64,000 nt of DNA from Bilabrum cf. latius (Eukaryota): positions 124,001 to 188,000 of the forward strand of contig OZ237769.1 of the NCBI GenBank assembly GCA_965178125.1. Direction: 5' to 3'. A program made the position numbers and the translations under genes. Within the stretch, counting starts at the first letter, position 1. Each line of letters begins with the position of its first letter. Under the pieces are notes generated by a model that saw nothing but the letters and a program-made list of their open reading frames with translations, was not told where the DNA came from and searched no databases. Shown here in pieces: positions 22,298 through 63,308 of the stretch.

Positions 22298-22452
22298 GAA
22301 CACTTTTTAAATAGTTGCAATCGGAATGTGTGCTGTCCGTGCAATACGGCCCGCGATATTACTGAAGTGTAAATTCTGGAGACGCCGTCACTGTTGGCGT
22401 GTGATGAGCTCCGAAGTGCAAGTGCATTTTTGTCCCAAATTCTCACTATTCT

Positions 22453-39000: not shown

Positions 39001-41579
39001 TCATGGAGGCGGGCGCTGGAGTTACCCACCTGTACGCACGTGTCGATTCCGGTATACATCTGGGTGCTGTTGACGCCTCCAGCATCTGGTCCACACCTAT
39101 CCCCGACGCACACCTCAATATTGAAGTAGACTACGCCTGGGATGCATTGCAGGGCTAGCAGCTCAGCGATACCATTACCTTGCTCTTCTTGCCGCTGTCC
39201 CACCTGCGCTGCGATCCCGGGCAGTGGCTGTGCTGCGTCTACCAATGCGCCACCGGGTCCTCTCAGATGATCGGCCCAGGCACTTGCAGAGTCACCATCA
39301 GGTCCATTTGCAGCTCTGACAAAGTCCACCACTGCCATTGGTTGCTGAATACCGTCAAGCATGACGGCATTGTATGCCTCGTTCAGCACCGAACTCGGCG
39401 TTGCAATCCCAGGGACGAACTGCGCCACTGATAGGGTCACAGCCACGCTCGATAAACCCATCCCCGATGCATCGAAGGCAGCTGGCTGGCCATACACATC
39501 TGGTGCTGAACAGTTTGCCGTGGTGTCTGAGCCGCTAAGGCTCGCGGGAAGGCTATGTGCCCCGACTACGTCCTGGATGCGGGATCCCCACAGAGTCACA
39601 GCGGCGGATGACGCCTGGGCTCCACCGTACACGAGCATCTCGGTTCGGTTCGCGCACGGCTCTAGCCATCCCATTCCGAGCACGTCATAGCCACCAGGAT
39701 AGCAGGGCAGTTCATTAGCTATGCTGTATACAGTAGCCGGTAGGAGTGCAGCGCCGGTATATCCCTGCACTGTCTCTGCTGCCAGCACTACCCCTGTAAC
39801 GGAAGAGAGATCAGAAACGGCCGCGTCCGCTTCCTGGGTCACCATCAGTGTCGCGGACGGCTGCATATCGCCGGCTGAGGTGGGCTGGAGCTGGGCATAC
39901 AGTGTGAGGAAGATCGGCTAGGCAGGGATACGCTGCACATCCAAGGCCGACTAGCCTTGTCCCTGGAGTCGCCCGCCGTGTGGTACCAGCCCCGATGCCT
40001 TGCCCTGGTCTACGCTGTCGATGGCCTCCACGCCCGAGCCAGTGCTGAAGGCAACCTACACAGTAGCCGGCCGCACCTGCATGCAGCCCTTGGTAGCGTC
40101 TCCCCGCATGATCTCGGCATGCAGAGTCAGTCCATTCATGGCTGCCTGCAAAGCCTGGGCGATGGCAGCATCGCCGCGCTTTTCGCTGTCTGCATCGCTC
40201 ACAGAGGTAATTTTAATCTCAACGTTTGCTTGCGACACATCCCCAGTCGTTACAAAATCGAAAGTCAGGCTGGCAGTGACGCTGGCCCCTACAGCATCCC
40301 CTGTGCCTGCATGGGTGAAAGTGAAGGTACCGTCCTTCAAACCGCCCTGCACCTGACTTTGGTCGAGCCCCGGCTGCATCGAGTCTGCCAGATCAGTCGT
40401 CACGGATATGACAGGATGCACATCCGCCCAGCTGCCCAGCTGCTACGTCGCCTGCGCTACATCCAGGTCTGTGCGGACTGCAATGATCACGCTGGAGGTG
40501 TATTTGGGTCGCGCCGGGTCCGATTCGTCGGGCTGGGGCGACTCTGAGGCCCGAAACGAGGACCATAGTCTCTTGAAAGCACTGCCTAGCTCGGCAGAAA
40601 CATCGATGCCTTTGGGAAGCAGAGGCACAAGGGGAGACACTGGGCCATCGCTGGAGAGCCCCAGGCCTTGGATCTCCACCGGATATGTCGGGAACTGCGC
40701 ACGACTGATCATGTCTTTCAGCTTAAAGGGGAGACCGATTCGAAGAGGGACCTCCCTAGGAAACACCCGCACTCCCAGCCGGAACACGATGGAGCTGCTC
40801 TCGACCTATGAAGGTGACCCCTGAGGATCTCCCTATGAAGGTGGATCCCCAGGATCTCCCTATGAAGGTGGATCCCCAGGATCTCCCTATGAAGGTGGAT
40901 CCCCAGGATCTCCCTATGAAGGTGGATCCCCAGGATCTCCCTATGAAGGTGAACCCTAAGGATCTCCCTGCTGTTTGGGCATCGATTTGATCTCTACTTG
41001 CAGCACCCTCATCCCAGGAAGTACACCAGCTGCACCCGCAGGAACAAATGCTGATAGGTTCTATAGAAGTGTCAGTGCGTCTGAGATCGTCGAGTTGGAT
41101 AAAGGTGGGGTGTGAATCCACGGCAGCTTGAGCGGCTGGCATCCCGACGGTTGCCCTCCGCTGGCCTCGCACCCTGCCGACAGCACCACCTCCAACGCAC
41201 CGTCATTCACGAACGGTGGCCGCGGTAAGTCATTTTTTTCCATTAGAGTGATAGACACAGACTCGAGGTAAAAATCATCCAGCGAGATATTTGTGCTGCC
41301 TGATTCCAGCTCCCATCCAAGCAGCAAACGCTGGCTCGGCTCTCCCTGCAGGACTGGCAAACACATCCCACTAGGGCTACCTGTTGCCAGATTTGAAGGT
41401 ATAAAATCATCCGTTTGCAGCGCCTCTATGGCATCGTCATGGCACTTGAGAACCCCAGTTGGGCTGACGGCGGAGAGGCTAGCCACCGGCACGGCCGTGG
41501 CACTACATGCTGCTAGCAGCACGAATATAGAGCCGCGTAGCAATGGGGCATTGGAACTTCCACTTTTTCTACGAATCAT
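24081..41579 (-). CDS. Giant polycystin-1/PKDREJ-like receptor (signal peptide, long ectodomain, REJ, GAIN/GPS, multi-TM), ~5,830 aa with TAG read as sense
   Basis: 27 ORF-track fragments in one frame; N-terminal hydrophobic signal; REJ-like LVIRPGTLTAGAKYTF..VNAAPHGG..WTDD..QYAFYY..VVVRDELGA; GPS CMFWDEARSLWSGVGC..LVCRCTHLTDFS (~29650-29762) followed by a TM helix; PKD1-type DHLYL..DRVFRL..FFYS and terminal TM pair ..SFFLIEP; TGA at 24081. Several, not all, gaps were read codon by codon. Confidence 0.85.
40805..40968. repeat. 27-bp coding tandem repeat (6 units) encoding GDPGDPPS-TAG
   Basis: Unit cctatgaaggtggatccccaggatctc, with variant first and last units. Confidence 0.95.
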
Positions 41580-42133
41580 AGGGCCTAATGAGTAGAAGGC
41601 TGCGTATTTCGCGATATAGTGTGAGAACCTGGAGGAATGCGTCTCGAGCTCCCTTCCGTTTCCGGTGCGTGATAGAACTAATCCAAGGCGTTCACTCCCT
41701 AGTACACGCCGGACGGATAGACCACGTAATCCAATAGCTTTTAATAATCTATGGAACCACTAGAAGCGTTCTGAATGTAGAAAATGGCCGGAAAATAGGA
41801 AAAGCTGCAACTCAGCATAGTTCATACCGTTACAATAACAAATCTGATTTACTCGACTACAGATGCATTTTTGTACCAAGGTCAACCAACTTGTTCCCAC
41901 TTTCGTGTAAGATGGTATATTTTATGGCTAGTGACGCCTAGATCGCTTGTGTGTGCTATTCATCGGTTTGAAGGAGTGACAGTAGCTCTTGCTCCAGCCG
42001 AAGCAACTCTGCTGACTGAGAATCCTGCGGATATTTGCCCTTCTCCCCCGTCTATTCGAATTGTATCTGTGTGGTATTACACTGCTGCAGGTTGTCTCCT
42101 GTTCCTAGGTTCCGTATCAGAATAGTTGGCACT

Positions 42134-45100
42134 ATGGCCTCAAGGGACGGAGTGCCACTCTCCACTCATGATTTTGAGCGGAAGATGATGACGGGCCGAG
42201 CCTAGGAAACATCTAGAAAGCTACCGACTCTACTGGGAAGAGAACCCGATCGAGTGGCGGCTGCGCTGGACCGGCTGCGTGCTGAGAACATCGTGCCGTC
42301 CACGACGTTTGCTTTCGGCGAGGACGGCGAGCACGCCCAGTCCTGGAAGAACAGCCCGCTGCTTGCAGCTAGGCGCCGCATGCTTGATGCCAGCAAGGTG
42401 ATCCCTTTTCAGGTTGAGCGCAGCCCCACGTTCGGTAGCCTTCTCGAAGCTTCCTCCCACCATCGGCTGCAGGGCGCCACTGTGCTCGCCCTCCAACGGA
42501 TGCCGTGGCTCGCGGGTTTCCTCGGCATGCCAAGCAAGCGGGCATCGCTCGGGGCAGGTAAGAGCGGTGCAAAGCCAGCAGCGTCTTCTTCTCCGTCCGA
42601 TTCTGCGTCTGGCGCAGGGGAAGGGGCAGCCGACGGCCCACTTCACCAGGCGACCTCCTTGGTCCCAGCCGCGTCTGCGGTTGCAACCAACCCCAAGGCG
42701 TGTCTGCTGGGAGCCGCCGTCTTGCGGGAGGCCATAAAGAATGGACACGACCAGGTGCTGGCGTGGATGGCCTGCCGCGCAGCCCTGGAGCATGGAGGCG
42801 TGGCCAGCTCGCCAGTGTTTGCGGGCAGCAGGCACTCCCCCGGGGACTCTGCCCTGTGGGCCGCCGCGGCGGCGGGGCAACCCGTGGCCATGCAGGCGCT
42901 GGTATCACTCGGGATCGATCCCAGGATCCCGGGCCCCAAGGGCCGCACCCCCTTCGCCGCACTGGTCGCGGGGGACGGGCCCGGTTGCAACCTCCCAGAC
43001 GAGCACATATCGCTGTCCGTGCGGTACCTGTCGCTGTTCCCCCACTGGAGGGCCCCTTCGGTTGTGTGCGCGGGTAGGAAGGACTCCATCGGGGCTCCCC
43101 CGCTGGTGCTCGCAGCCGATAGGCTCGGCGTGAACACCCTCCTGGCCCTCCTGCGACTGCCCGCGGTGGCTGGGCAGGTGCTGCAGGGGGACAAGTGCGT
43201 CGCTCTTGAGGCTGTCAATCGGCGAGACGCGACTGCCCGGGGGTCCCTCGCTAGGCTGTGCGCGATATCACTGCGGATTGCGGAGCCGCGACACAAGACC
43301 AGCGTGAGGGTGTCGATGCTGGAAGAGAGCTGGCGGCGGATGGCAGAGGCAGGGGCCCAGCTGGCGGAGCTGGGCCCTGACAAGGAGAGCGGCGGTGAGG
43401 GCGGGCTTGGGGACAGCGGCCCGGATGTGGACGCGAGGGTGCTCGAGTTGGCCCGGGAGATCAGTTCCATCAGCCGGTTCGGTCCTCCCAACGGCAGGGT
43501 CCCGCCCTTCGATGACTTCAGGCCCAAGCGGCCGCAGAGCGCAGTAGTGCACGGGGCGCGGCGCAAGTCAGACACGCCGTTCGGATTGAATTACCCACAT
43601 GGTCTCCGAAAACTGCTCGACTCTGCGTGGTACTAGCGGCTGGTCGGGAGCGCGGGGGCTGCAGGAGCAGGAGCGGTGGAAAGGCCTCACGGTGACGCTG
43701 GTGCTGGTCCCGCCCAATCCGAGGGCTCTTCATTCTCTTCATTGACTCATGGCTCTGGACCATCGCTTCCCGTGCCGTCACCTGCTCTCCTGCAGCACGC
43801 GCACACCCTGCTAGGTGTCGCGGCCACCTGTCGGGCGTACCGGAATGAGGCAAAGGCAGCTCTCGCGGACCCCGCGGATGGCCTGCTGCACTCGCTAGGG
43901 CCCTCCTCGTCCTCTTCCCTGGCAGAGCCCCAGCCTGATGGGTATGCGAGCGGTGAGCTGACAGGCACAGGCAGTGGGCCGTCCGATCCAAGCGCGAGGC
44001 CCAGCTCGGCCGGCGGGAATGGCAGTACTCAGGCGCATGGCCAGGCGAATGGCAGTAGTGCTAGTAGCAAGAAGAAAAGCAAGAAGAAGAAGCGAAGGGC
44101 CCCTCCAGTACCGCCTGCCACGAGCGGAGCGGGCCTGGCTGCCTCCACAGACGTAAAGCAATACATCGCAACCGTCCTGGACGTTGACTGGCTGGCCATG
44201 AAGGGTCATGATGGGGAGGCGGCAATGGACCGGGCGGGCGACCACACGCTGGCGGCCGACGTGCCAGTGTCTAGGGGCGGAGACCAGCTGCGGCAGGCGT
44301 TGCGGCGCTGCATCAAGCAGGGGACTGGGGTCAAGAAGGAGCTGGTTGAAGAGGCGAAAGAGGCTGGAGTCTAGGCGAGAAGGACCAGGCAGGCGGCTGG
44401 GCTAGCAGGGATGGAGGGGAGCGCGGAAAGCGAGGCTTTGCTGGAAGCAGAGCTGCGTGCCAAATCCGCAGTGAGCCTATCGGGCACTGGTGCCTTCGGG
44501 GGTGGCTGGAGCGTGGCGGCGGGTGCGGCTGCCCCGCGAGCACCGGGTGCCTCTGGTGCGGAGCTGGAAGCGGGTGCTGCACTTGGGGCAGCGCAGGGCA
44601 GTGCAGCCGATGCTGAGGGAGGCGAGCCGGCCTCCACATCCCTGTTGTCGGGCGCGCGCCGTGCAGAGGCCCAGACGATGGTGGAAGAGGAATACGACCC
44701 GTCCATCGGGGCGGGGAAGGAGGCCCTGCAGCTGGCCTCCAGCGCCATGTGCCTGCAGTCTAGAGGGGGCGAGCGCGAGCTGCAGGCGGCTTTGTTCCCT
44801 CAGTGGCTGTTCAGCACCGACGAGGGCGGCATGCTGGAGGCGGCCAGGAAGCACAGAGCCGAGCTGGATGGACACGCAGACATTCCCGACAAGGTGGAGG
44901 CTGCCCTCGGCGCGCCGGAGCGGTACATGGACAGACAGCCGGAGGAGGACATTCTCGACGCTGCAATGCGATGCATCAAGAAGCTGTCCCACCAGCGCGC
45001 ATCGGCAGCGGCGTGCCGCATGCTATTGCGGCACCACATCTAGGAAGGCAAGCTGATGCAGCCCGCAGCGGAGACTCTTCTGGCTGAGAAGTTGAGGTAG

Positions 45101-48100
45101 CAGCTGGCTGAGGGCGGCTTCGGTGACGGCATGGATGGTGCTGGCAACAGAGGAGACAAGCCTGCCGGGCAGAAGCACGGCAAGGCGAAGAAGAAAAAGA
45201 AGAAGCATCGCAAAGCGGATTCCAAGCAGTCGATTGCATTGGTGTCGTCAGACGATCCCGATTATGCTGCCACATCGAAGGAGGCGAGCACGGCAGCCAA
45301 GGCATCAGGTTCCACCGCTGGCCGTTCGAGCGCAGTGCACCCGTCCTCGTCCTCACCTGCGATCACTACGAGAGCGTCCGCAGCGCCCGATGCAGGCCTG
45401 AGCCCGCCGGTGGACGCAGCAGAAGAGGCCGAGTAGCTCCGTGTGGCAATCCGGGCGTCCGGGCGGGGCGACCCTGGAGCAGCAGCTGGGCGAAGAGGCA
45501 GATCGAGGGGAGGCGATCAGCGGGCGGGGACGGTCGAAGTGAGCCAAGGGGGCGGCTGGCACCGCCCGGGGGAGAAAAAACCGAAGGCCAAGGAGGCAAC
45601 TGGTAGCGGAAGGCGCAGTGCTGGTGCGAGAGACGGCAAGGGCAAGGCCCATGGAGGCGGCAGGCAACAGGCGAGCGCTCGAGATAGGAGAAGCCGTCGA
45701 GGTGACGGTGGCGATAGAATTGCCAGTGGCGCCGGTGCTCGACCGATTGCCACGGCAGGCGCACCAAGCAGCCGCACTTCTACCACTACGGCCACCGGTG
45801 GCGTCCAGGCCTCCGCGACGCCGACCCAAGGTGCTGCCGCATAGGCTGCTTCAGTCCAGAGCTCTGCCAAGGTCGCTGCCAAGCTTGCAGGGCCCATGTC
45901 GCAGACAGCCGCGCCGCCCTAGCAAGCGACCGACCGCGGTCCAGCGGCAGCGTCAGTGTGGAAGGGGAAAGTGGCTGCTGCAGCTGCGGCGCAATCCGGA
46001 GGAGCTCCAAAAGGCCCCAGACCTGTGCGCTAGTAGCCGGTCGACTACCGAGTGACGAGTGCGGCGCAGGGTAAAGAATCTCAACGCCCGGCCTCCTCTG
46101 GAGCTCCAGCTGGAGGAAAGGTACCGAACGCATCAACGAAGGAATCAAAACCTGCAGCTGCCAAGTCTATGGGCAAATAGGACGACCTGCCATCATCGGA
46201 TAATTCGAATACCTAGTCCATTAGTGCTAGCTAGGCCTCGGTGCAGCGACAAGAATCCGATGGCACAGGTGCTGCCAATACCGACGGCAAGCCAACATCG
46301 GCATCGCAATCGATCGATTCGCAACGTGCCCAGCCGGAACCGGCCGCTGGGACTGGCCCTCGCAGTACTGGCGCTGTGCAAGGCCAAGCACCGGCGCCCG
46401 GCATCGGCTCAGAGTCAGCCTCCAGTCGAGGGCCTGAAGCCGAAGATGCAGCCAAACCTGCGACCACAGCAGGAGATGCGCCCGCTCTCGCGCCAGGATC
46501 GACTCAAGCAGTACCCAAGGCAACTGCCTCCCGCGACTGGGCAGCTGCAGCTGCGAAGGCATCAGCATCAGCCTCCTCCTCCTCGTCGAAATCACCGCCT
46601 AGTGGTGCTGCAGGGAGCCCAGCGGTGACCATGCAGCGCAGCCCAAGCGCGGTGGCAGACTCGATCGAGGTGAAGGAGGACGAGGCAGGCCGCCTTCTCG
46701 GGGTGGTGTGGCAGCAGTTTCCCGAGGCGGAGGCAGCTTCTGTCTCTGTCCGGCACCTGCTGGGCCTGGACCTCGGCTCCCTGTCGGTGGGGCAGCTGGA
46801 CGTGGTGCATCGCGTGTGCGAAGACGTGCAGCGGCGAGTGGGCGACGCCAAGGTGCAGGCGGTGATGAGGCAGGGGTAGGTGGCGCTGGCCTCCGAGCTG
46901 CAGTCGATCGAGAGGAGGCTGGAGGAAAAGCGAAAACTGGAGGAAGAACAGCAGGCCAAGAGCAAGGAGCAGCAGGAACACGCGTAGAAGATGCAGGTGG
47001 ACCCTGCTGGATCTTCAGCCGAATTGGGTGAGCTACCTGCATCCCCGGAGGCAGTACCAACTCCGGATAGACCGGCCAGCTCGGAGTCGAGTGATGGCGG
47101 GAAGCAGAGCGAAGGGGGTGGCTCCTCGCAGTCGAGCGTGGCCTCGTCGGGACGTGACAAGGAACGAGAGAAGGAGCAGCAGGGGCATGAGGGCTAGAGG
47201 CGAGAGGCACAGCAGCGAGCCCGAGGGCCGGATGGAGAGCAGGTGGCAGGGACTGCGGCAGGTGCAGGATGGACCCAGGAGCCTCCTCCAGCACCCATGT
47301 ACACCCAGCACGGAGTGGTGTATAGATCCATGCCTGGGCCTGGGCCCGGGTCTGGGGCTGGGGCTGGGTCTGGCGGGTGGGGTCAGATGCAGGGTGCGCC
47401 CGTGGGCATGGGCGGATTTCCGGTGGTTGGGGTGGCCATGCAGCCTGGAATGGGCATGAGAATGGGCATGGGAATGCAGCCAGGAGTTAGCATGGGGATG
47501 GGGATGGGCAGGATGGGCATGGGCATGGGCATGGGCATGGGAATGGGGATGGGCTCGCCCCCGCCAGGTTACTATCCTCCTGGTGCACCCCTGCCCGCGG
47601 GTCCGTTCTCGGCCATGCCTGGGGGCGGCATGGCCGGCCCTGGATCCCAGTTTTACCCGCAACAGGTATATCAGCATCAGATGCACATGCAGATGCGGCA
47701 GCCCCACCAACAGCACACGCAATCCAAGGAGGATGATGATGCCATCAAGAGCAATGGTTAGGGCATCGCGGCCAAAGGGACCTAGGGCAAGGGCAAAGGC
47801 TAGGGAAAGGGAAAGGGAAGGGGTAGAGGTGGCAAGGGGCGCCTCCCGCCAGCCGTGCTCGAGCAGCAGGCCAAGGTTGCCGCCCAGCAGCTCATTGCCG
47901 CCCAGCAGAGGCAGCCGCAGCGCGCGATAGCCGCAGGTGGCGTGGCCCATGGCGCACTAAATCATCATGTTGGGCAGGGCCTACGTGCCGCAAGCAGTCA
48001 CGCTGGTATCGGCCATGCCGCAGAGGCTGGTAGCATCGACAGGGCCTCTGGACGCGGTGCTGCAGCTACCGCTGGCGCTGCAAGTGATGGCGATGGTGTT

Positions 48101-48160
48101 GCTGCAGTACCAAGTCGTGCCCCGGGTCCGTCCATTGGAGACGATAGTTACGTGAAGTAA
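42134..48160 (+). CDS. Large protein with N-terminal ankyrin-like repeats, Lys-rich patches, a coiled coil and a Gly/Met/Pro/Gln-rich tail, ~2,000 aa
   Basis: Nine co-frame ORF fragments joined across TAG; ankyrin-like AIKNGHDQVLAW, GDSALWAAAAAGQ..LVSLGIDP, GRTPF; in-frame ATG 42134; ends at TAA 48158-48160 followed by AT-richer DNA. Confidence 0.75.
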
Positions 48161-48885: not shown

Positions 48886-51678
48886 TTATGTTTTGATAAG
48901 ATACCCCACTACCAAGGAGGGAGGTGCCATCCGGAAAGGAGGCTCGGAGGAGCTTGTGCCAGTTACTGTGGTGACTCGGTGCCCGGAGTTGGGACCCGTG
49001 CCCGCGTTAGTAGCGAAATTGTGCCGGTGGTCCGGGAATTTGTCATATTGCAGGACGTTCGACCAACTTGTCCCGATCGTCCCCACCCCGATAACGCCAT
49101 TCAGAGCAGTAACTCCCTGGGCAGCCGCACCGTATGGATACTTCCCCCTGAGGTCTGGAACACTGAATTTGCCTTCATCTGATACTACAGCACGATCCGT
49201 GAAGGCATCGCCGATGACGGACCAGAGGGTGGGATACCCCGCCTTGGCCAGCACACGTCCGTCGCAAGGCAGCCACCCAACCGGCACGTTCGCAGGATCG
49301 CGCACGTCCGCTGCGTGCATCACGAGAGTCCCAGGAGGCACACTACCACCAGAGCCACTGCTGCCGCCACCCGAGCTGCCAGCACCAGAGAGCTACCCGG
49401 TGGACCCGTCAGACCCCACAAGAGCAGCGTTCCCCGCTACAGCACCCGATATTATTGCGTCATTCATGACCATTAGGTACTCGCTGCTCACAGCCAGCCC
49501 CACAATCTGTGCCCCAGGCTCTACCCCTTGTGCCTGTGTGACGACGGTGCCATCCCTCTGCCTCGCGTAGTATGCAGCATGAGGCGTCAAGGAGTGGTAG
49601 GGGTTGCGCAGTGCCCCTGTTACTGCGGCTTGGACCACGTTTCCAGATGCGAGGGCGTGGTTCTTGCCGTGGACACTATCGCCGCTCCGACTGAACCGAG
49701 TCACGCCAACCGCCACCGGCCCGGACTAGAGGAGACCCACGCGAGCATGGGATGCAACGCCCGTCGACGATCGGTGTATAGCCAGAACAGAGTCTGCCAT
49801 CGCTGGACTGCCGGCGAGACCCACTGCAAGCACATCAGTGCTCTGACGGCTATCCCCTACAGGAAGGGGGATTCCCATGGAGAGCTGGAGCTCCCCATCA
49901 GCCGTCGCCACCCCGTCCTACAGCACTGCGGCTGCAGATCCGTCCCGGTACGCAACCACGAAGCGATTGGGACGGGCGCACGCCTCATCCTCAGTGACTG
50001 AGCCGAACCCTCCCAGCTCGGGGCCGCAGGGGACAGAAGCCACGAAGACAGACAGGGCAGTCGGAACTGTGGATCCTGGGTGTATCACTACGGCTGCATG
50101 CAGCTTCACCTACCGTACTGTAGTGCCATTGATCGACATGCCTCGCAGCAGGAGTGCTTGGCCCTCTTCAAAGTCGCGATAGGCAAGCACAGCTTGTCCG
50201 GATCGCACCACGCCCAGGGCCATGTGCTCGTACCTGCTGCCACCCGGGATGGGTCCGCTGGAGGACGACTGCGGATTGAAGCCGTCTTGATCATTCAGTA
50301 CGAGCAGGGAAAATCGACCCTCCTTCGATGCGTCCCCTTGATAGGCGAGCAAGAAGGTATCGGTGGTTGGTCCCACCAGCGCAAGGAACCGGGCTGACTG
50401 CGCCTGCTCTATGACCAATGCAGTCGAAAATGATCGTGTGCTGCCGTCCGAAGGCCGCACTTGGAGCGAAAGGCCCACCAGAGCCCCGTCCTATGGATCC
50501 CGAGTCGCCACTACCATCATGATACGGTGGTTGCCACCGGTCGGTGCCGCAGGGCCTGAGGGCGATCTGGAAGCAACGACAACGTCTGTTGCATCCGTGC
50601 GAGACCCACCGTCTCCGAACGCAGATGCAGGCACGCTAGTGGTATTGACAGCAACCGTCGCAAGCTCGGTAGAGGACGCTGTAGACACCTTGAACACAGA
50701 CACCTACACAACGCCCTTGCCGCCAACGGGTGCCACCCAGGAGCACACAACGGCGTCAGCGGCCAGAGGTGCGCACGAAGGTCGTGCTGCGTTGTTCATA
50801 GTGGTACTAGTCGGGCTCAAATTGACGCTGGTCACCTCCTCTACGCCTCCAACACTGTGCCCGGAGCCTGGGCGAACTGGCTATGCGCGGAGGAGGGTAG
50901 CAGCGGGCTGCCCACTGGCACTGCCAAGCTTGGAATAGAACGCCAGTGCTCCATGCCCGCTCCACAGGGGTGCAACGCCCATGCGGGATAGATCTGCCGT
51001 TGCCATTTGGCTGGAGGCGCTTTGCAGGTCTAATCCGAAGCCAGGACTGGCATACCCGTCGATGCCCACGCTCATGGCGACCATTGGTGCAACGGAGGAA
51101 GCGTTTCTGCCACCAGGGCGCAGCGGGAGCCCGAGCGATACCTCTGGTCCAGAGCCGAGAACTTCAAAATCTCCGCCCACTCTCAGCCCGCCGGTCACCC
51201 CGAGCGAGCTGGACTAGAAAGGGGACGTGGGCTGCCTCGGTGAGATGCTGCCTGCAAGGCGAGCCACGTCGACATGGTCGGCGCCATCGCTCGTCGCGTC
51301 TAGGCCGCCAATGCGAAGGGCAATGTTATCTTCCAAATGGATTCCTACCTCCTCTGCGAAGTACGAGGCTTCCTGATCGTACGCCACTGCTGGTCGGAGG
51401 CCATCGCCCGTAAAACCTTCAGACAGCTATCGAGCCTATCTTTAGCTCGGAGATACACCCGATTCTGCTAGATTCGTACTATCGTGACCAATGTGAGACT
51501 TAAACGTCCGAAGCTCGGCCTCGACACGTTCGAGGCGTTCTAGAATGTCGCTACGCGACGGCTTGCACGTCTCGATTGTTGTAGCACTCCGACTCTCTAC
51601 GCTCGTGGCCGCCACAAAACACGCCATAGCAACACCTGCTGCTGCATAATATTTTCGGAATCGAGCAGAGTATCGCAT
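48886..51678 (-). CDS. Putative secreted protein with a C-terminal phage tail-collar (Collar/MdpB-like) domain, ~930 aa; contains one in-frame TAA at 51442
   Basis: Seven or more co-frame fragments; N-terminal hydrophobic stretch and short coiled coil; C-terminus VPPGTLVMHAA..VPVGWLPCDGR..YPTLWSVIG..FSVPDLRGKYPYG..PDHRH..PPSLVVGYLIKT-TAA. Confidence 0.75.
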
Positions 51679-52399: not shown

Positions 52400-55270
52400 A
52401 TGGAGGCTGATGCTTCCATACCAGTCGACTCTCTTCGGTACGATCGGCATGCAAAAGAGCTGCCACGCAGGTTCGTCTCAGCGGTTGCATTGAAAATCGA
52501 TCTGGATGCAGAGTTTGCTACCATCTCGGCAGCTGGAAATAGCCGACTGTCCCAATAGGTCGATACAGCAGCGTCTCAGATACTTAATCTCTGTTTGACT
52601 TCCAAGCTGACAGAAAAGGACATATCTCAAGTTCGTGACAGCGTCCACAACTTGAATGTTGAGCACAGCTACTATCTCTATTATTGTTTGCTGATAAAGC
52701 TGGTAGCGGGATATCAATAGGGATGGTCCAGACCTGCGTGCGATTGCATCGCTGCCGACCGGCATCTCCAGCGTAATGGCTAGGCTCTGCACAGCGTGAT
52801 TCAAGATTAGTACAGGAGCGCATGGAAAGAGGTTGTACATGACGTCCATGCTGACACTCCCCGATCGTGCGCTGACGTAACTTCTTGGAGGGCGTGCCGG
52901 GATCCCTCCGGCCCCGGTGGTGCTCGCTCGATGATCGCGATGGCCTGCGCTGTGGGCGCCCCGTACACTCTGCGGTCCATTTTCGAACACATGGACAACG
53001 TGGACATGCATGTCGATCTCATTGTGGCAAAGTGCATGGAGAAGGTTCCGTGCAGGCGACCGGTGCGTTCAGCCACGCTGGCCCGCATGGGCCGAGACTT
53101 TTCGAAAGCATCGAAAGCATTGCAAGCGGCAGCAACAGCTGCAGCTGAGATAACGGCTGCGGCTACGTCTGATACAAGCCCCGTGGCCCCGCCTTTCTAT
53201 ACCATCCGGGATGAAGGTGATGCTCAGGACGATCCACTGCCAGGCCTACTCCCCTGTGAGACCGTGCATCTACTGCCTGAAGTGCTCGCTGTCCGGAGCG
53301 GGTGCATCGACACGCTGTGGGCTCTAATGAAGCAAATATTTGCTGAATCTGCGCGTGCGAATCACAGGTGGAATTGCCTGCACGAAGCCGCGCACTGGGA
53401 CGACTTTGATGCCTTCGAGGTGCTGCTCAACCAGCGCAAGGATCCGCACGAGTCTATCCTCGGGGAAGACGGGCCGATCGTGCGGGCATGCAGGCAGGGC
53501 AGCGTACGGGTGCTGAGGTACGCGCTTTAGATCTTGGTCGATTATCCTGAACCCAGCCTTTCCACCCGTGCCGCCAGAAAGTCGGCCCCTACCCCTGAAC
53601 ATGACCAATTCGCAACGACGATCGAAGGACAGACCCTGATTGCCGCTCTGCAACAGGCGATCCTGTGGGCCAGACCCAAGTGCGCTGCGCTAGTGTTGCA
53701 GTGGAATAGTGGCTGCGTTCGTGAAGCAATGATGAGTCGAACAATGGCTGGGAATAGAACGCGAATGCATCGTCCCATGGCACCTCTGCCGACCGACAGC
53801 CGCTGGGGCCGAGCTGGGTGCTCGGAGGAGGCCAGAAAAGCATGCGTGCGGACCGTGCAGGTGCTGGGAAGATTCAGACTGCAGGAGCTGTCGACGTGTA
53901 TTGTGCACTTGCTGGCCGTCTAGCGCATGCACGGCGCTCTCCGGGCCCTGGCGTCGAACGTCGGAACAGGGCCCACTGTGCTGGAGGCTGCTGGCCTTTG
54001 GAAGGCGCGACCGAGGTCCATGCCCAAGCATGTGACTGGCTACCTGGGGAAGTTTCCCGCTCGATTTGGACGCTTGGGTGACACCAATACCGTGAAGAGC
54101 CTCAGCATGGCAATCGTGGAGGTTGCCATTGCTAGCCAGAGCCTGCCCGAGGAACTGCGAATGTCCTACCCCTCTGCGGACTTGAAGGAGTGCATGTAGG
54201 CATTGCTTAACCTATGCAATTCAGGTGGTCCAAGCTATCGAAGGCCTGGCGGCACCCTGATGCACCAAGCACACTTTGCCAGCAGGGACGAGAGAGGCAG
54301 GCCCGTGCCAATGTTCTACAATGGTGCGAGCAGGCAGGATGAACTGGCCTGGCTGTGCCGCTATTTGCGGGAGAGGACAAAGCAACTGCTCTCTCGTCCG
54401 CGTCAGAACACGATGGCACTTGTGGATGCACCGTCATTGCACCTGAATCACCACAGCTGGAAGGAGCTGGTGCAGGAAATGCTGTGTCAGCAGTTTGGCA
54501 TGGCGCCGTGCTCCTTGCATGTGGTGCACGAGGCAATCCGGTGCGGCTGCATTCCCATTGGGAATTCAGGCGGTCCGAGCACATTTCATACCGCTGATAG
54601 TCAATTCGCAAAGCCATCCATCGTGCGACGGACAGTGGTCTGCACTCTGCTTCTGGGCGGATGGTCCGTCGTGCCAAGGCATTATCACGCATGTCGACCG
54701 GACGACCCTAGATTCTGGCACAACTACACCCCCAATGTGCGCAAGCAGCAGGCCCTTGCCGACGCATGCAAACGCGAGGCATGGCGGGAGGCAGGGGCGC
54801 TACTGGCCGAGAACAAGACCGTTGCAGCGATGCGTGAGGCGGCAGGACCCACGACCACGTACAGACAGCAAGCGATGATCTAGTGGAGGGAAGCGGTGCG
54901 GGCCCGACGAGATTTGCAGGATGTATGGGGCATGGCGATCGGCTGGAGGCCGCTTGGCCTGGCACGGTGCATGCGGCCCAGGACGCGACAGGCGTGCCTT
55001 GCAGTGCGGGGCTGCTTGCCGCCTTCCGAGTCGGGGCATGGAGGAGGTCAGCTGAAGGCATCAAGAGTCAAGCGGCGAGGCGGCTGTACGCTGCTGATGG
55101 GGGCGGCTTTCACTGGCTCGGCCGAGTGCGTGGAGGTGCTGCTCGAGGCAGGCGCGGATGTGGGCGAGCTGGACGAGGAAGGCAAGGACGCTGCGTGGTG
55201 GGCGAGTCAGACGGCGAAGGGGGTTGGGAGGGCATCGGTGATGCGATTGCTGGGGTGTGCGGTGGAGTGA
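52400..55270 (+). CDS. Ankyrin-repeat protein, tandem paralog 1 (~956 aa)
   Basis: Co-frame fragments joined across TAG; LHEAAHWDDFDAFEVLL, GPIVRACRQGSVRVL, GCTLLMGAAFTGSAECVEVLLEAGADV..DEEGKDAAWWA; TGA stop; colinear with paralog 2. Confidence 0.85.
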
Positions 55271-55555
55271 GATGAGTGGTTAGTTGACTAGCGGCAGCGA
55301 GAGTGTCTGCACCTTTATGTGTGCTCCATTTATCGTATCGGTTGATTCTCTTGAGTTGGCGGTTGCAATATCTGCCGTGTTGGGTGCGGGGCCTTTGTTT
55401 TTTGACATTTTTCCAGTGGCCTGGGTAGGAAGATGAAGATTGGAAGGTCCACAGCCGAGAAGCTGCATTCATCCCTGCAAACTTGAGCTGCTGACTCTGC
55501 AGCGAGTATTGTTAATTATCAATACTTGCTCTACTAGTCCATTCCTTTCTGAGCC

Positions 55556-58477
55556 ATGTCCAGGTTGCCGATTGATACGCTTTTTGTAGAATAGCATGCA
55601 GCATCACTGCCTCGCAGCTTCATTGCAGCGATCGCATTGAAACTTGATCTTAAAGCAGAGTTGGCTATTATTGAGGCAGCTCGAAATAGCCGACTGTGTC
55701 AGCAAGTTGATCTGGCGGCATCTGAGATATGCAATTTGCCTTGGACTGTCAGACTGGATGACAAGGCAGTCTCACATATTCGTGATATCATCCACGGCTT
55801 GGACACGCATGGCTGTTTCTTTTTGAATTTTGCTTTGCTTGTGCGGTTGGCCGCTGGGTATCAAGAAGGCTGGTCGAAGCCTGCTTGCGACGCGCTTGCC
55901 GTCGATACCATACTACAGCAAAACGGTCGAGTAGTGCACAGCATGATACATGATTAGTACAAGAGGGCATTGACACGGTTTCGAGGCAAACGCATACCTC
56001 AAAGATGTGCTGACACGGCCTCCTGGAAGGCGTGCCGGGATCCCTCCGGCCCCGGTGGTGCTCGCTCGATGATCGCGATGGCCTGCGCTGTGGGCGCCCC
56101 GTACATTCTGCAGTCCATTTTCATACACATGGACAACTTAGGCATCCCCAAGCACGTCATTCGGGCAAAGTGCATGGAGAAGGTTCCGTGTAGGCGACCG
56201 GTGCGTTCAGCCACGCTGGCCCACCGACGTCGGGCAGCCGCTGCGACACTTGTTTTGGAGAATGCACAGGGAGCGGGAGGAGTACCATTGCTAACTGGGG
56301 CAGCGGCAGCAGTTGGTACTATTCCCACAGCCGGATGGGCCACTGGCGCAGGATCAACGATGCCACTTCATAGGGCAGTGGCGAATCAGTCATCTAGGGT
56401 GGACGTACCATTGCCTGGGCTACCGCACATGCAGCCTGTGCTGTGGACGCCTGAAGTGCTTGCCGTCCGGAGCGGGTGCTTCGACACGCTGTGGGCTCTA
56501 ATGGAGCTAGTAGGGCGTACGAAGGATACAGGGTACACGTGGAACGGCCTGCACGAAGCCGCGCACTGGGACGACGTCGATGCCTTCGAGGTGCTGCTCA
56601 ACCAGCGCAAGGATCCGCACGAGTCTATCCTCGGGGAAGACGGGCCGATCGCGCGGGCATGCAGGCAGGGCAGCGTACAGGTGCTGAAGCGATCTCTCCA
56701 ATACCTGGACGATTAGCCTAGGCTAACAATGAGGGAGAGTGCCGCCATGGCATCTTCAAGATAGGCCCCATACCTTCCTCCACACTAGATGAATCGCACG
56801 GAGTTGGGAAGGACGCTTCTGGATTCCGTCTGGAAAGCGACTCTGTGGGCTAGACCCCAGTGTGTCGCGCTCTTGGTGCAGTGGGATGAAGGCATCGCGT
56901 ATGATGCACTGAAGAGTGAATACAAGGATTACACCGAAGCGCGATGGGAACAGTTCATGGCACCTCTGCCGACCGACAGCCACTGGGGCCGAGCTGGGTG
57001 CTCGGAGGAGGCAAGGAGAGCATGCGTGCGGACCGTGCAGGTACTGGGGAGATTCAGACTGCAGGAGCTGTCGACGTGTATTGTGCACTTGCTGGCCGTC
57101 TAGCGCATGCACGGCGCTCTCCGGGCCCTGGCGTCGAACGTCGGAACAGGGCCTACTGTGCTGGGGGTCGCAAGCGGGTGGCAGGCGCGGCCAAAGTTTT
57201 TGCCAGATCATGTGCGATTGTAGTTGTCTTGCCTTCCAGCCTACTTTTGGCATGGAGATGAAATACATGCGGTGAAGAGTTTTGCGATGGCAATCGTGGA
57301 GGTTGCCATTGCTAGCAAGAGCCTGCCTGAGGAGCTACGAATGTCCTACCCCTCTGCGGACTTGAAACATTGCATGCGGGCGCTGCTCGACCTTGGGAAT
57401 GCAGGGGGCTCGCACTATCGAAACCCTGCTGGCACGGTGGACATGCAATCACACTTTCCCTGCAGAGACGAGAGCGGCAGGCCCGTGGCGATGAAGTTTA
57501 ATGGTGCGAGGAGGCAGGACGAGCTAGCCTGGTTATGCCGCTATTTGAGGGAGAGGACGAACCAACTGCTCTCTCGTCCAAATGGGCGCACCATGGCAAC
57601 AGGTGCATGTGCTGAGCCCCTGCAGCGCGAGTGGTGGAGAGAGCTGGTGGAGAAGTTGCTCAATGAAACACACGGCTTCACACCTTGCTCCTTGCATGTA
57701 TTGCACGAAGCACTCCGGTGTGGCTACGGCAATGCTGTGATTGACCATGGTTCTGAGTCAAGAAGTCCCCCTGCTGTGCCGCTGCCAGCTAAGCGATTGT
57801 CTCCCACGCAGCGGGCGGCAGTTAGCACCCTTCTCCTGTGTGGATGGCCACTGGCGCAGGCAAGTGATAGGGATCTTGATCCAAAGGATTAGCCTAAGCA
57901 TGACGAGCCTGAGTTCTGGCACAACTACACCCCTAATGTGCGCAAGCAGCAGGCACTTGCCGACGCATGCAAACGCGAGGCATGGCGGGAGGCAGGGGCG
58001 CTACTGGCTGAGAACAAGACCATCGCAGCGATGCGAGAAGCGGCAGGACCCACGACCACGTACAGACAGCAAGCGATGATCCAGTGGAGGGAAGCGGTGC
58101 GGGCCCGCAGGTACCTCGCAGAAGCGTGGGGCATGGCGATCGGCTGGAGGCCGCTTGGCCTGGCACGGTGCATGCGGCCCAGGACCCGACAGGCGTGCCT
58201 TGCAGTGCGGGGCTGCTTGCCGCCTTCCGAGTCAGGAGGGGGGCAGCCGAAGGCATCAAGAGTCAAGCGGCGGGGTGGCTGTACGCTGCTGATGGGGGCG
58301 GCTTTCACTGGCTCGGCCGAGTGCGTGAAGGTGCTGCTCGAGGCAGGCGCGGATGTGGGCGAGCTGGACGAGGAAGGCAAGGACGCTGCGTGGTGGGCGA
58401 GTCAGGCGGCGAAGGGGGTAGGGAGGGCGGCGGTGATGCGATTGCTGGGGGCAGCATCGCCTGATCCCGGCGTTTGA
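55556..58477 (+). CDS. Ankyrin-repeat protein, tandem paralog 2 (~973 aa)
   Basis: Same architecture as 52400..55270; ATG 55556 in frame; TGA 58475-58477. Confidence 0.85.
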
Positions 58478-58791: not shown

Positions 58792-58838
58792 ATGGATCAC
58801 TCCTCCCGCCCAAACCGCATGGATCACTCCTCCCGCCC
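58792..58838. repeat. 20-bp direct repeat at 27-bp spacing, overlapping the kinase stop codon
   Basis: atggatcactcctcccgccc at 58792 and 58819. Confidence 0.85.
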
Positions 58839-61800
58839 GAACTGCTCCCGCACCGACAGCAGCGCCGCGCACTCCTCCCGCAGCCTGTCCACCGCCCGCT
58901 CCCTCAGCAGCCACTCCCTACGGGCCACCCCATCCCACACGCATGCCTCCCCGCGAGAGGCCTCCGGACCGCCCCCCGACACCACTCGAGGCACCGGCGC
59001 GCGCCCCACCACTCCGAACGAAACAGACCCCCGGCTGTCACGCGCACATGCCACCAGCTGACGCATCACGAACGACTCCGCTGAGTCCCCCGAGTCGGCA
59101 GCGCCCACCGACCGAACGACCGGGTCGTCCGCCCCCGCCCCCGATGCAGCCCCTCCAGCCCCCCCACCTTTCCCACCACTCCCGCCACTGCTACTGGCAC
59201 GGCCGCTGCCCCCGCTTGCCGCACACGCCCTCAGCCCCGCCTCCCCCCCTGGCCCGAACAGCATGGCCCTCAGCGCCATGATCGCACGGCCAGGCTCCAG
59301 CCGAAGCTCAGGGATGGGCTGCTGCAGGCCGCGGAGCACCGCCTCCAGCCACGGACCCGCTTGTTCCCTGGCGCTCGGTAGCTTGGCGGGGTCGTACAGC
59401 CCCCCGCAGTTTGGAAGCACCGCCGTCGGGTCCAACAGCTGCCACACCACCCGCCCCGCCGCCCACGCGTCCGCCGACTCGTACGCCTGAGCCAGCCTCT
59501 CCAGCTCCTCCCCCTCCGAATCAGTAGTCAGCTCGCCCCGCTGCATGAGAGTCAGCTCAGGCGCCCTCGTCACACCCGCCCCGTGCTCCCCCAAGTCCTC
59601 CGTCGAGAAGGCCACGTGCACCGACCCGGCCCCCGCACCCTCGAACACAGGGGCACCGGAAGCAGCAGCAGCAGCAGCAGTGGATGCAGTCCCAACGCTC
59701 GCCCGGCCTGAGCGCCCCCGCAGCACTGCCAGCAGATCTCCGCTGCCTCTCCCACTGCCGCTGCCACTGCCCGGGCCTGCTGCTTCACTTTCTCCGCCCC
59801 CGCTGCTGCTGCCAGCCGCCCCCGTGCCCTGCGACACATCCTCTGCCATCCGGCGCCTGTTGGCCTGGAACTCGCGGTCCAGCTCAGACGCCACCCCGCG
59901 CTTGAACAGCAGCCGCCCGCTCCCGAAGTCACCCAGCACGATCCGCCCGTCCTCTGCAAGGAACAAGTTATCATCCTTCACGTCCCGATGCACCGCCCCC
60001 CTTCGCAGCATGTGCTGCGTGGCCTCCAGCGCGCCCAGCAGCCACAGCGCCGCCTCCCGCCGACCCGTGCACGCCTTCGTCTTCACGGCGGAATGGAGAC
60101 TCGTGGGGTACCGCGGCATGACGATCCACGTGGTGCGCCGGGCCACCACGCCCAGGTCCATCAAGCCCCGACCCACCCAGGGAACTGTCAGAGCCGCAGA
60201 CCCGAAGAACGAGTGCAGCACCGGCACGATGTGCGGACATGCCGTCCCCAGCACCCGAGGCACCCTCCACTCTTCCCTGTGCTTCTGGATGACGTCCTTG
60301 GACTAGTACCGCGATGCGTCGGCGAACGGCAGCATCCCCTTCACCGCCAGCTCCCTTCCCTCCGTGGTCCGCACCGCAAACACGAATCCGTTCACCCCCT
60401 GTCCATCCCCCTCTTTGCCTCGTGGCAGGTTCAGCGGGGGGATGCGTCCCCGTTCTTCCTCGGGCGCGCCCTCTGCACCCGTGGCGATCCTCTTCACCGC
60501 ACCCACCTCCACCACCCGCGCCCCGCCGGCAGCCAGCACCTCCAGCTCCTCCGGACCCGGCACGCTCCCCAGATCGATCGTGGTGACACCGCCTGCAGCC
60601 AGGTACTGCAGGCGACCATCCGCATGCCGCATCCAGTCACTGTCTGCTAGCAGCGACGCAGGCAGCATCATTGACGACAATGACGACGACTCGGACGGCC
60701 CCTGACCCAGTCTCCGCAGTCGAGTCGCCGCGATTGCACTGACCCCCGCGGCCCCTCCCCATGCCTCAAGCAGGGCCCGAGCAGGACCAAACCACCCAGC
60801 CATCGCAGAGACCGACAGCATCGCGCCGGGGTCGGAAGGGGCAGGGGCTCCCATGGCCAGCAGCGCACGCACCGTGCCCAGCGAGGCAGCGCCCAGCATG
60901 TCCTCGCCCAGCGCCCTCACCAGCGGAGACATCGTGGCATCCAGGCCAGCGATCGCACCCCGCACCCCCTCGTCCTCCACCAGCGCCGCCAGCGCATCGC
61001 CCGCCTCCTTCACGCGGAAGTCCAGCGCCAGCCGACCCAGCCACCGAGGCGCCCCCGCCCGCACCAGCACCCGCCGAGCATCCCCCGAGGCCTTCCTGGC
61101 GATGGCCCCCACCCACGCGCACGAGGCAGCCGCCGCCTCGGTTCGATCTGATCCGTCGCCCCCGACCACACTGGCGCGCTGCATTGCCCGCACGGCCATC
61201 GTGACCAGCTCCCTGTCCTCTGGATCGTCCGACTCACCGAGCCCCAGTGCCACCGCGGCACGGCATGCTCCTGGGCCCGGAGCTGCAGCCCTGAGGTGCC
61301 ACCGGACCGAGTCGATGACACCCTCCGCCGGGATTGCGATGTCCATGGCTTCCTGGTCCGTGTCAGTGGCAGCGATGCAGTCTGCCAGGGCCTCGCACGC
61401 AGCATCCGCGGCCGCGAAATCGTGTGGGGATGCGTCAGCCAGAACCTCGAGACTCGCACGGACCGAGCCTCTGCAGACGGTGCGGATCGCATCGAGAGCA
61501 TCTTCTGCAGTGCTTGCGGTTGCAGCCTCCCTCCGTCGCTGCATGATATGCTGTAATGTGGGTTTGGTCTATGAAGACGGCACAGGCTCGCAGCGTCCCT
61601 CGAGTGCTTGCCGCACCTTCTCCCGCCATACCTCAACCACCTTGGTGCTTTCGAGATTCAGCTCCCGAAGCGCCCCGTTGGTCTTGAGCGCCTCCGCCAG
61701 GCCGCACGCCCCCTCGTCCCCCACCTGGGTGCTACCGAGATGCAGCACCCGAAGCGCCCCGTTGGTCTTGAGCGCCTCCGCCAGGCCGCACGCCCCCTCG

Positions 61801-63308
61801 TCCCCTACCTTGGTGCCATTGAGAAACAGTACCCGAAGCGTCCCGTTGGTCTTGAACGCCTCCGCCAGGCCGCACGCCACATCGTCCCCTACCTTGGTGC
61901 CATTGAGAAACAGTACCCGAAGCGCCCCGTTGGTCTTGAGCGCCTCCGCCAGGCCGCACGCCCCCTCGTCCCCCACCTTGGAGTCACCGAGATGCATCTC
62001 CCGAAGCGCCCCGTTGGTCTTGAGCGCCTCCGCCAGGCCGCACGCCCCCTCGTCCCCTACCTTGGTGCCATTGAGAAACAGTACCCGAAGCGCCCCGTTG
62101 GTCTTGAGCGCCTCCGCCAGGTCGCACGCCCCCTCGTCCCCCACCTGGGTGCTACCGAGATGCATCTCCCGAAGCGCCCCGTTGGTCTTGAGCGCCTCCG
62201 CCAGGCCGCACGCCCCATTGTCCCCCACCTGGGTGCCATTGAGATCCAGCACCCGAAGCGTCCCGTTGGTCTTGAGTGCCTCCGCCAGGCCGCACGCGCC
62301 TTCGTCCCCCACCTGGGTGCGACCGAGATCCAGCTCCCGAAGCGCCCCGTTGGTCTTGAGCGCCTCCGCCAGGCCGCACGCCCCATTGTCCCCCACATTA
62401 GTGCCATTGAGAAACAGTACCCGAAGCGTCCCGTTGGTCTTGAGCGCCTCCGCCAGGTCGCACGCCCCCTCGTCCCCCACCTTGGAGTCACCGAAATGCA
62501 TCTCCCGAAGCGCCCCGTTGGTCTTGAGCGCCTCCGCCAGGCCGCACGCCCCCTCGTCCCCCACCTGGGTGCCATTGAGATCCAGCACCCGAAGCGTCCC
62601 GTTGGTCTTGAGCGCCTCCGCCAGGCCGCACGCCCCCTCGTCCCCCACAATGGTACCACTGAGATCCAGCTCCCGAAGCGCCCCGTTGGTCTTGAGCGCC
62701 TCCGCCAGGCCGCACGCCCCATTGTCCCCCACATTAGTGCCATTGAGAAACAGTACCCGAAGCGTCCCGTTGGTCTTGAGCGCCTCCGCCAGGTCGCACG
62801 CCACATCGTCCCCCACATTGGTGTAATACAGATGCAGCTGCCGAAGCGCCCCGTTGGTCTTGAGCGCCTCCGCCAGGCCGCACGCACCCTCGTCCCCCAC
62901 CTGGGTGCCAAAGAGAGTCAGCACCCGAAGCGCCCCGTTGGTCTTGAGCGCCTCCGCCAGACCGCACGCCCCCTCGTCACCCACCGTGGTGTAATTGAGA
63001 CTCAGCTTCCGAAGCGCCCTGTTGGTCTTGAGCGCCTCCGCCAAAGCTAATACGCCCCGATCACTAACGGATCCAGAGCAAGACAGTGTAGCGCAAGTCG
63101 TGTTGTCGGCAAGCAACTCTGCCACAGCTATGGCTTTATCATCGGATACAATGTTCACTTCATTTGTCCCGCTCAGAAGATGGTGGCAAGCCTGCAGAAG
63201 TGCAGAGGGCGGTGAACGGCATAGGATGGAGCCACTCAATGGACGCAGCGGATGCGTTCGGTTGGTACACCCATGACTCACATTTTGGTCTCGCCCCCTT
63301 CCCGACAT
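58824..63308 (-). CDS. LRR (RNI/NLRC3-type 28-aa repeats), helical region and PINK1-like Ser/Thr kinase fusion, ~1,490 aa
   Basis: ORFs 61569..63308, 60303..61544 and 58824..60263 are co-frame and joined across TAG (61569, 60303); kinase motifs GQGVNGFV, LAVK, PHIVPVLHSF, WIVMPRYPTSL, HRDVKDDNL, DFG, APE, ADAWAAG; TGA at 58824. Confidence 0.85.
61655..63045. repeat. 84-bp coding tandem repeat array (16 full units plus 1 partial) encoding LRRs
   Basis: Constant cgaagcgccccgttggtcttgagcgcctccgccaggccgcacgcccc.tcgtccccca plus a variable ~30-bp segment; translation EALKTNGALRxLxLxxTxVGDEGACGLA. Confidence 0.97.

Follow-up and report, generated by a model that had tools for sequence, protein, structure and literature searches.

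Two adjacent ankyrin-repeat genes in an assembly labelled Bilabrum cf. latius raise the question of how the triplet TAG is read in the organism that carries them. They lie on contig OZ237769.1 (GCA_965178125.1), of which positions 124,001 to 188,000 of the forward strand were analysed; this whole stretch of 64,000 nucleotides is hereafter called the window, and all coordinates refer to it. Under the standard genetic code, the interval 52400–58477 is split into open reading frames (ORFs) of 80–250 codons. Reading through TAG instead gives two ORFs in tandem on the + strand, 971 and 973 codons long. A sequence-only reading of this interval had proposed that TAG behaves as a synonym of CAR, that is, as a glutamine codon. 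This proposal is supported here, mainly by an orthologue of another gene of the window in a related organism, where Q faces four of eight TAGs, and by Pfam domain scores, the ankyrin pair being only suggestive. From the sequence comparisons described below, it is likely that UAG encodes glutamine in this organism and that UAA and UGA are kept as stops.

TAG as a sense codon

Eleven long ORFs of the window, amounting to 19,252 codons, contain 146 in-frame TAGs and not a single TAA or TGA. The counts of TAG, TAA and TGA in the same ORFs are 146, 52 and 321 in the +1 frame and 146, 66 and 357 in the +2 frame. TAG is not depleted in frame, while TAA and TGA are wholly excluded from it. The in-frame TAGs are spread over nine of the 11 ORFs, and none of these ORFs is terminated by TAG: nine end at TGA and two at TAA, a distribution that comes from 11 genes only. 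TAA and TGA are not sense codons here; they still end genes, and TGA is the main stop. Equal abundance of TAA and TGA in frame, which would have spoken against the glutamine proposal, was not seen, as both are absent.

Reading through TAG makes ORFs of 3892, 5939 and 2041 codons emerge, and conserved domains are found downstream of, or around, the TAGs. These are the C-terminal block of a SART-1/Snu66-like protein, REJ, GPS, tail-collar and PINK1-like kinase domains, HATPase_c together with a receiver domain, and C-terminal ankyrin repeats. The bases flanking TAG show ordinary coding periodicity, and no readthrough motif or other context motif was found at the TAGs. Three studies have public runs whose contigs match 48300–58800, a region that includes both ankyrin genes, and these contigs have no differing letter at any TAG; the assembly itself may derive from one of these runs, and none of them is proven to be RNA.

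The frequency of TAG varies between genes. It is zero in two genes whose G+C content at third codon positions (GC3) is 0.76–0.79, 1.3 per 1000 codons in a gene combining leucine-rich repeats (LRR) with a kinase domain, and 6.4–10.3 per 1000 codons elsewhere. The rate per gene parallels the share of CAA and tracks weak codon bias. Highly expressed genes of other recoded protists likewise avoid reassigned codons, according to the available excerpts of two studies (PMC5304391, PMC12153298). Considering the frame counts, the terminators and the domains, that TAG is a sense codon in the window is close to certain.

The tandem ankyrin-repeat paralogs

Paralog A (52400..55270, + strand) has a frame that is open from 52355, with ATG codons at 52373 and 52400, and ends at TGA. 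Its eight in-frame TAGs lie at 52556, 52718, 52781, 52808, 53528, 53921, 54197 and 54881. Paralog B, the tandem copy (55556..58477, + strand), starts with ATG, ends at TGA and also contains eight, at 55592, 55955, 56714, 56762, 56786, 57101, 57221 and 57890. Both proteins match the Pfam families Ank_2, Ank and Ank_4 above cut-offs at about residues 338–391 and 907–965, and the remaining ~850 residues of each belong to no family. No homologues were retrieved from the protein collection, at near or shorter lengths, or from metagenome, genome or viral contigs.

In a protein-guided codon alignment, 601 of the 938 aligned positions (64%) are identical, and every gap comprises whole codons. Both copies therefore stay in frame, as the sequence-only reading had stated. 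Neither contains an in-frame TAA or TGA, of which there are 21–30 in each +1 and +2 frame. The Nei-Gojobori method gave a nonsynonymous rate (dN) of 0.283 and a synonymous rate (dS) of 0.554, hence an omega (dN/dS) of 0.511 (95% bootstrap interval 0.436–0.606). Translating TAG as Q, E, K, R or L, or excluding the TAG codons, shifted omega by no more than 0.015, so dN/dS has no bearing on the meaning of TAG. The argument that these are not pseudogenes is upheld in either case, as ~970 codons without TAA or TGA and an omega well short of 1 hold whatever TAG means. A and B are best explained as tandem paralogs that are both functional and moderately constrained by purifying selection, because omega is 0.511 with an interval of 0.436–0.606. 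The dS between them forms a mosaic, ranging from 0.14 to 1.33 per 100-codon block, a pattern suggesting that gene conversion has homogenised the two copies in patches.

The alignment contains 14 TAG columns. Two TAGs are shared by both copies, in the contexts GAT TAG TAC (52808/55955) and GCC GTC TAG CGC (53921/57101), one (57890) is opposite a gap, and 11 are opposite sense codons. The CAR pairings noticed earlier proved exact to the base: TAG 54881 faces CAG 58082 (ATG ATC TAG/CAG TGG AGG), and the TAGs at 52556 and 53528 face CAA at 55703 and 56699; so did the two shared TAGs. Other TAGs do face GAA, CGG and TAT, as had been said, but the accompanying statement that these all fall in diverged blocks does not hold, since CGG 57377 is surrounded by conserved sequence, with 16 of its 20 flanking residues identical. 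In full, the codons facing the 11 unshared TAGs are CAA (two), CAG (one), CGG (two), CGA, GAA, TAT, TAC, AAG and GAC (one each), corresponding to three Q, three R, two Y and one each of E, K and D, with no hydrophobic residue. This set, Q, R, E and K plus Y and D, is similar to the partners of ordinary Gln codons in the same pair, which are Q (55%), R (12%), E (11%) and K (6%).

Two models were applied to these columns. A residue-exchange model (BLOSUM62, weighted by local identity) assigned 0.96 to Q and 0.04 to R. A 62-codon model that takes mutational adjacency into account, with kappa fitted as 2.0 on TAG-free columns and omega and t estimated on the columns flanking each TAG, gave Q a posterior of 0.46 and a lead in log-likelihood (lnL) of 1.6 over Y and of 2.6–2.9 over the rest. 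Taken alone, the pair is suggestive: it points to Gln and does not establish it.

The REJ/GPS protein in a close relative

The longest gene of the window encodes a polycystin-like REJ/GPS protein (24081..41900, − strand; 5939 codons) and contains 61 in-frame TAGs. An exhaustive HMMER search with its residues 3050–4249 as the query retrieved five short proteins which, in order, tile residues 2943–4176 (window 29373–33074, − strand) at 79–84% identity. They are P0006 (143 of 175 residues identical, 82%), P0007 (50/60, 83%), P0005 (95/120, 79%), P0003 (648/769, 84%) and P0009 (47/59, 80%). The five fragments appear to be pieces of a single orthologue in a related organism, cut up by a gene caller using the standard code. 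Two of them stop exactly one codon before TAGs of the window (residues 3185 and 3329), and in both cases homology is regained after a few codons; the estimated chance of two such coincidences among five ends, given 10 TAGs in ~1230 codons, is below 0.001. Both the in-frame stop-like codons and the altered code thus seem to be common to the relative and the window. Seen the other way round, P0003 ends at a CAG of the window and P0006 at a GAG. Searching with P0003 for the DNA of the relative returned no match in genome or viral contigs. The public protein library stores this orthologue as five separate fragments broken at stop-like codons, and the relative's genes seem to be mis-annotated under the standard code.

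Of the 10 TAGs that the window has in this region, eight face residues of the relative: Q in four cases (residues 3617, 3691, 3771 and 4139) and K, E, L and S in one each, with R and Y never occurring. The more distant protein P0004 (48% identity) likewise carries Q at residue 4139. When a codon-to-residue model was fitted to the 1170 ordinary columns, Q came out ahead by at least 6.5 lnL for any omega from 0.05 to 1 under uniform rates. When rates were left free for each hypothesis, the lead of Q was 3.8 lnL in the relative and, with the paralog pair added, 5.9 lnL over the next best residues (Y, K and L), L trailing by 6.0. Under any reading other than Q, at most one of the eight TAG columns would be conserved, compared with 67–100% for ordinary codons (P ≤ 1.5e-4). 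Among about 140 distant homologues of this region, the columns at TAG sites are unconserved.

The same gene contains a 27-base coding tandem repeat (40805–40969, − strand; 6.1 copies, 94% matches), each unit of which encodes GDPGDPPS followed by TAG. Seven TAGs are found there inside ~51 codons. The first and last units differ as TAG versus CAG at the same position, a difference that was counted in favour of Gln.

Domain scores and overall weight

Pfam bit scores were compared with TAG translated as each of the 20 residues, using four domain regions that together contain eight TAGs. Ank_3 represented the ankyrin repeats in the sum, as the score of Ank_2 jumps by ~5 bits with or without a second stretch. 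In SART-1 (two TAGs), the best residue was M (49.1), followed by Q (48.0) and L (47.7); in REJ (four TAGs) it was T (78.4), with Q at 78.3 and S at 77.3. In Ank_3 (one TAG), E scored 24.2 and Q 24.0, and in Pkinase (one TAG), K scored 49.1 and Q 49.0. Q was second in each of the four families and first in the sum, with 199.3 bits, followed by T (195.3), M (195.0), E (193.4), N (193.1), K and S (192.9 each), L (192.5) and R (191.1). This comparison rests on distant homologues and is independent of those made with the pair and the relative. A classifier based on the context of neighbouring residues was also run; its outcome was driven by self-clustering of low-complexity sequence and by the size of the training sets.

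In all, there are ~27 informative TAG sites, and Q has the plurality in both the paralog (3/11) and the relative (4/8) comparisons. In the available data, Glu, Leu, Tyr and Trp are not the main partners of TAG, and dN/dS is not close to 1. The homologous columns occupied by Gln lend moderate support to the assignment, and the three independent comparisons show Gln to be the best fit. Given that TAG is a sense codon, we consider it very likely that it stands for glutamine.

Several observations weigh against this assignment. In the relative, Q is kept at four of eight TAG sites but at 44 of 47 ordinary Gln codons (P = 9e-4), and each of the four other residues there (K, E, L and S) can be reached from TAG in one step. 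In the absence of selection, a transition bias of 2–6 would by itself give at least four CAG among eight one-step changes with P = 0.06–0.26. The relative is known from protein fragments alone, so that its stop-like codons are taken to be TAG, and the 48% relative P0004 gives no discrimination when used alone. In the paralog pair, Y and Q tie when TAG sites are given their own rate and omega for each hypothesis (on a grid). In the 2041-codon gene, two TAGs face AAG in the degraded duplicate at 51911–52059, and the first TAG in the conserved block of SART-1 faces Leu in yeast and human. Despite this Leu, Q equals L in level in the SART-1 score (48.0 versus 47.7). The margin of Q in the summed scores is 4 bits over the runner-up and has no ordinary-codon control. 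As for the decoding machinery, no tRNA genes or Rfam RNAs were found within the 64-kb window, where the decoding tRNA is therefore unseen, and eRF1, the release factor, is not among the genes encoded there.

Considering these departures from Gln, we infer that the TAG codons are young and appear for the most part where constraint is weak. In agreement with this, they are missing from the two most codon-biased genes, and their frequency parallels the share of CAA.

Alternative readings

The best surviving alternative is that TAG is a sense codon for another amino acid, either one of its one-step neighbours (Lys, Glu, Leu, Tyr or Ser) or Arg. Arg faces TAG as often as Gln in the pair (three sites each), Tyr fits the pair equally well under free rates, and the AAG codons of the duplicate and the Leu of SART-1 would suit Lys and Leu. 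There is also a precedent for UAG as Leu, in a rhizarian and some ciliates (PMC5304391, PMC11687900, as far as the available excerpts go). Set against this are the residues of the relative, among which no candidate other than Q recurs, and the combined permissive codon model, in which all alternatives are at least 5.9 lnL behind Q. In the Pfam sums, E, K, L and R are 5.9–8.2 bits below it. Arg is, in addition, not a one-step anticodon change from CUA. Leu was rejected specifically, since none of the 11 paralog sites is hydrophobic, only one of the eight relative sites has L, and L trails Q by 6.0 lnL and 6.8 bits. Overall, a different amino acid is unlikely.

Another possibility is that TAG is ambiguous, being either a leaky stop read by near-cognate tRNAs or a codon whose meaning as stop or sense depends on context, as in karyorelict ciliates and Condylostoma. 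Avoidance of TAG by the most codon-biased genes and the faster evolution of TAG sites relative to ordinary Gln sites are what would be expected of a costly codon. Nevertheless, with up to 61 TAGs per ORF, hardly any protein would reach full length by leaky readthrough, and the in-frame frequency of TAG is no lower than in the other frames. No context motif was found at the TAGs, and all 11 ORFs have a terminator other than TAG. We regard ambiguity as very unlikely.

Slightly less probable still is that the standard code is in force and that U-to-C editing turns TAG into CAG in the mRNA. Editing would likewise produce Gln at TAG sites without codon reassignment, and none of the public runs, being unproven as RNA, speaks to the transcript. 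It would, however, require that 146 sites in 64 kb, which have no sequence context in common, each be edited precisely, and it sits poorly with a TAG that is equally common in and out of frame and ends none of the 11 genes. We know of no nuclear U-to-C editing at such a scale.

Finally, that these are pseudogenes or non-coding ORFs, or that assembly errors created the TAGs, can be dismissed almost completely, as far as 64 kb of sequence can show: long chance ORFs do occur on both strands of this GC-rich genome, but 19,252 codons without TAA or TGA (373–423 in each alternative frame), an omega of 0.51 with an upper bootstrap bound of 0.61, Pfam domains downstream of TAGs and orthologue fragments 79–84% identical in another organism argue for coding sequence, and the contigs of three studies agree with the DNA.

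Gene content and origin of the window

The window has a G+C content of 57–65% (about 60%), with closely spaced, uninterrupted genes and AT-richer DNA between them. Its gene set is eukaryotic, comprising a spliceosomal SART-1 protein with HIND motifs, an RNI-type LRR protein with a PINK1-like kinase domain and the polycystin-like REJ/GPS giant; a hybrid histidine kinase, a BNR protein and a histidinol-phosphate aminotransferase are also encoded. No intron joints were seen at 48300–58800, where the comparison was made with contigs of public runs whose kind of material is unproven. The best explanation is that the window is nuclear DNA of a GC-rich, intron-poor eukaryote. A phage or giant virus origin was ruled out by the eukaryotic gene set and the absence of hallmark genes, and a bacterial origin by SART-1 with its HIND motifs and by the AT-richer intergenic DNA.

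The SART-1/Snu66-like gene, which encodes a spliceosomal tri-snRNP (small nuclear ribonucleoprotein) component, occupies 17482..20934 (− strand) and has eight in-frame TAGs. Two of them sit within the conserved C-terminal block, in the arrangement FGRP-TAG-T-TAG-KEAY. A word-indexed search with the C-terminal region of this protein gave no matches. The hybrid histidine kinase (648..12326, − strand), with HATPase_c and receiver domains, is encoded by the 3892-codon ORF, whose 25 in-frame TAGs all lie before or between the conserved domains. An inverted repeat joins positions 1–265 and 756–1020 (98.5% identity over 265 bases); one arm lies within the 3′ end of this ORF and the other at the window edge, and it may be a true palindrome or an assembly artefact.

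The LRR (RNI-like) and PINK1-like kinase gene (58824..63308, − strand) has two in-frame TAGs, one of them within the envelope of the kinase domain. Its LRR array (61637–63043, − strand) consists of 16.8 copies of an 84-base (28-residue) unit at 86% identity and is free of TAG. The two genes lacking TAG altogether are those for the histidinol-phosphate aminotransferase (20906..22303, − strand; 465 codons, GC3 0.79) and for the BNR/sialidase-like protein (12977..14305, − strand; 442 codons, GC3 0.76). The former is a TAG-free comparison gene of high codon bias. The nearest solved structure to its product is the Escherichia coli enzyme (E = 7e-58), and in the metagenome collection the best loci are ~40–55% identical, with no closer relative.

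The 2041-codon ORF (42035..48160, + strand) encodes a low-complexity protein, has 19 in-frame TAGs and ends at TAA. Directly after this stop there is an 83-base tandem repeat (48199–48372; 2.1 copies, 97%), and the depth of one run (X1) at 48300–48650 is ~3.5 times the neighbouring level. The duplicate of its 3′ end (47784–47930), located at 51911–52059 and 5′ of paralog A, is frameshifted and retains 83% identity. Word depth at 51810–52160 reaches about 260 and 148 in two runs, compared with 0–5 around it; given this excess, the spot holds a short element that is either highly repeated or very abundant. Two further ORFs contain TAGs. One, of 833 codons (48886..51387, − strand), has a C-terminal phage-tail-collar domain, eight in-frame TAGs that are all 5′ of this domain, and TAA as its stop; the other, of 1052 codons (14320..17478, − strand; seven in-frame TAGs), matches no Pfam family.

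Known codes, mechanism and meaning

The comparisons with published codes in this section draw on excerpts of the cited papers. The closest known system is the nuclear code of the fornicate Iotanema spirale, in which UAG is reported to encode Gln and UAA and UGA to serve as stops (Panek et al. 2017, PMC5304391). As in the window, UAG alone is reassigned in a non-ciliate eukaryote, Gln was inferred and UAA is kept as a stop. Unlike in the window, where TGA ends nine of 11 ORFs, UAA is the primary stop in Iotanema; set beside that organism, the window has ~60% G+C and includes histidinol-phosphate aminotransferase and histidine-kinase genes. The phyllopharyngean ciliates Hartmannula sinica and Trochilia petrani are also described as using UAG for Gln (McGowan et al. 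2024, PMC11687900). They share with the window the reassignment of UAG only and its widespread use as a sense codon, but they prefer UAA as the stop, whereas in the window TGA is the main stop, and genes are found together in a GC-rich 64-kb stretch. Such a multi-gene, GC-rich stretch with genes ending at TGA seems unlike a ciliate macronuclear genome.

In the rhizarian exLh, which lives in an insect, and in an uncultivated phyllopharyngean clade, UAG is reported to be Leu (PMC5304391, PMC11687900). These codes resemble that of the window in that UAG alone is reassigned, UAA and UGA are kept and UAG is rarer in highly expressed genes. The exLh sequence was found within the sequence data of its host animal; that of the window occurs in three differently labelled sources. 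The codes of NCBI table 6 (ciliates, dasycladacean algae and hexamitid diplomonads) also read UAG as Gln; they read UAA as Gln as well, and were rejected because TAA never occurs in frame in 19,252 codons (52 and 66 times in the other frames) and ends two ORFs. TAG is likewise Gln in code 15 of crAss-like and Lak phages (PMC9523058). Those are phages of gut bacteria, whereas the window encodes SART-1/Snu66, a PINK1-like kinase and REJ/GPS and has no phage gene set. The genomes of crAss-like and Lak phages are, moreover, of low G+C.

We found no description in the literature of a GC-rich eukaryote in which UAG alone is Gln, which does not show that none exists. The code of the window is probably a further case of the known, rare type in which only UAG is reassigned to Gln, as in Iotanema, unusual in being GC-rich and TGA-terminating. 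The genetic code would have lost TAG as a stop, and TAG would have become a third Gln codon beside CAG and CAA. By analogy with known cases, UAG, and not UAA, would be read by a dedicated tRNA-Gln with anticodon CUA, and eRF1 would no longer recognise UAG efficiently. The absence of in-frame TAA argues for a UAG-specific decoder, since an anticodon CUA reads UAG only and UUA would read UAA as well (PMC11687900, in part); UAG-specific decoding makes a tRNA-Gln(CUA) and a UAG-sparing eRF1 the expected parts. The TAGs of the ankyrin genes would then be ordinary codons drifting to and from CAG, CAA and other one-step neighbours.

The TAG codons of the window differ from the relative at eight of 10 sites, and none occurs in the codon-biased genes. 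This fast turnover, together with that absence, would point to a recent change. A tentative reading, for which we hold somewhat less than even odds, is that an undescribed, non-ciliate, GC-rich lineage of at least two species has recently reassigned UAG alone to Gln, with TGA as its main terminator. If true, codon capture would be seen here while still under way, and in a GC-rich genome, contrary to the usual AT-rich setting; codon reassignment has been tied to AT-richness in other work (PMC12153298). Codes that split the meanings of UAG and UAA are rare, the excerpts of PMC5304391 and PMC11687900 naming one fornicate, one rhizarian and a few phyllopharyngean ciliates, and such splits show that the two codons are mechanistically separable. 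With a GC-rich case whose genes end at TGA, capture of UAG would be known from a broader range of conditions. For the organism itself, annotation under the standard code shatters the genes, and the right code yields proteins of 4,000–6,000 residues.

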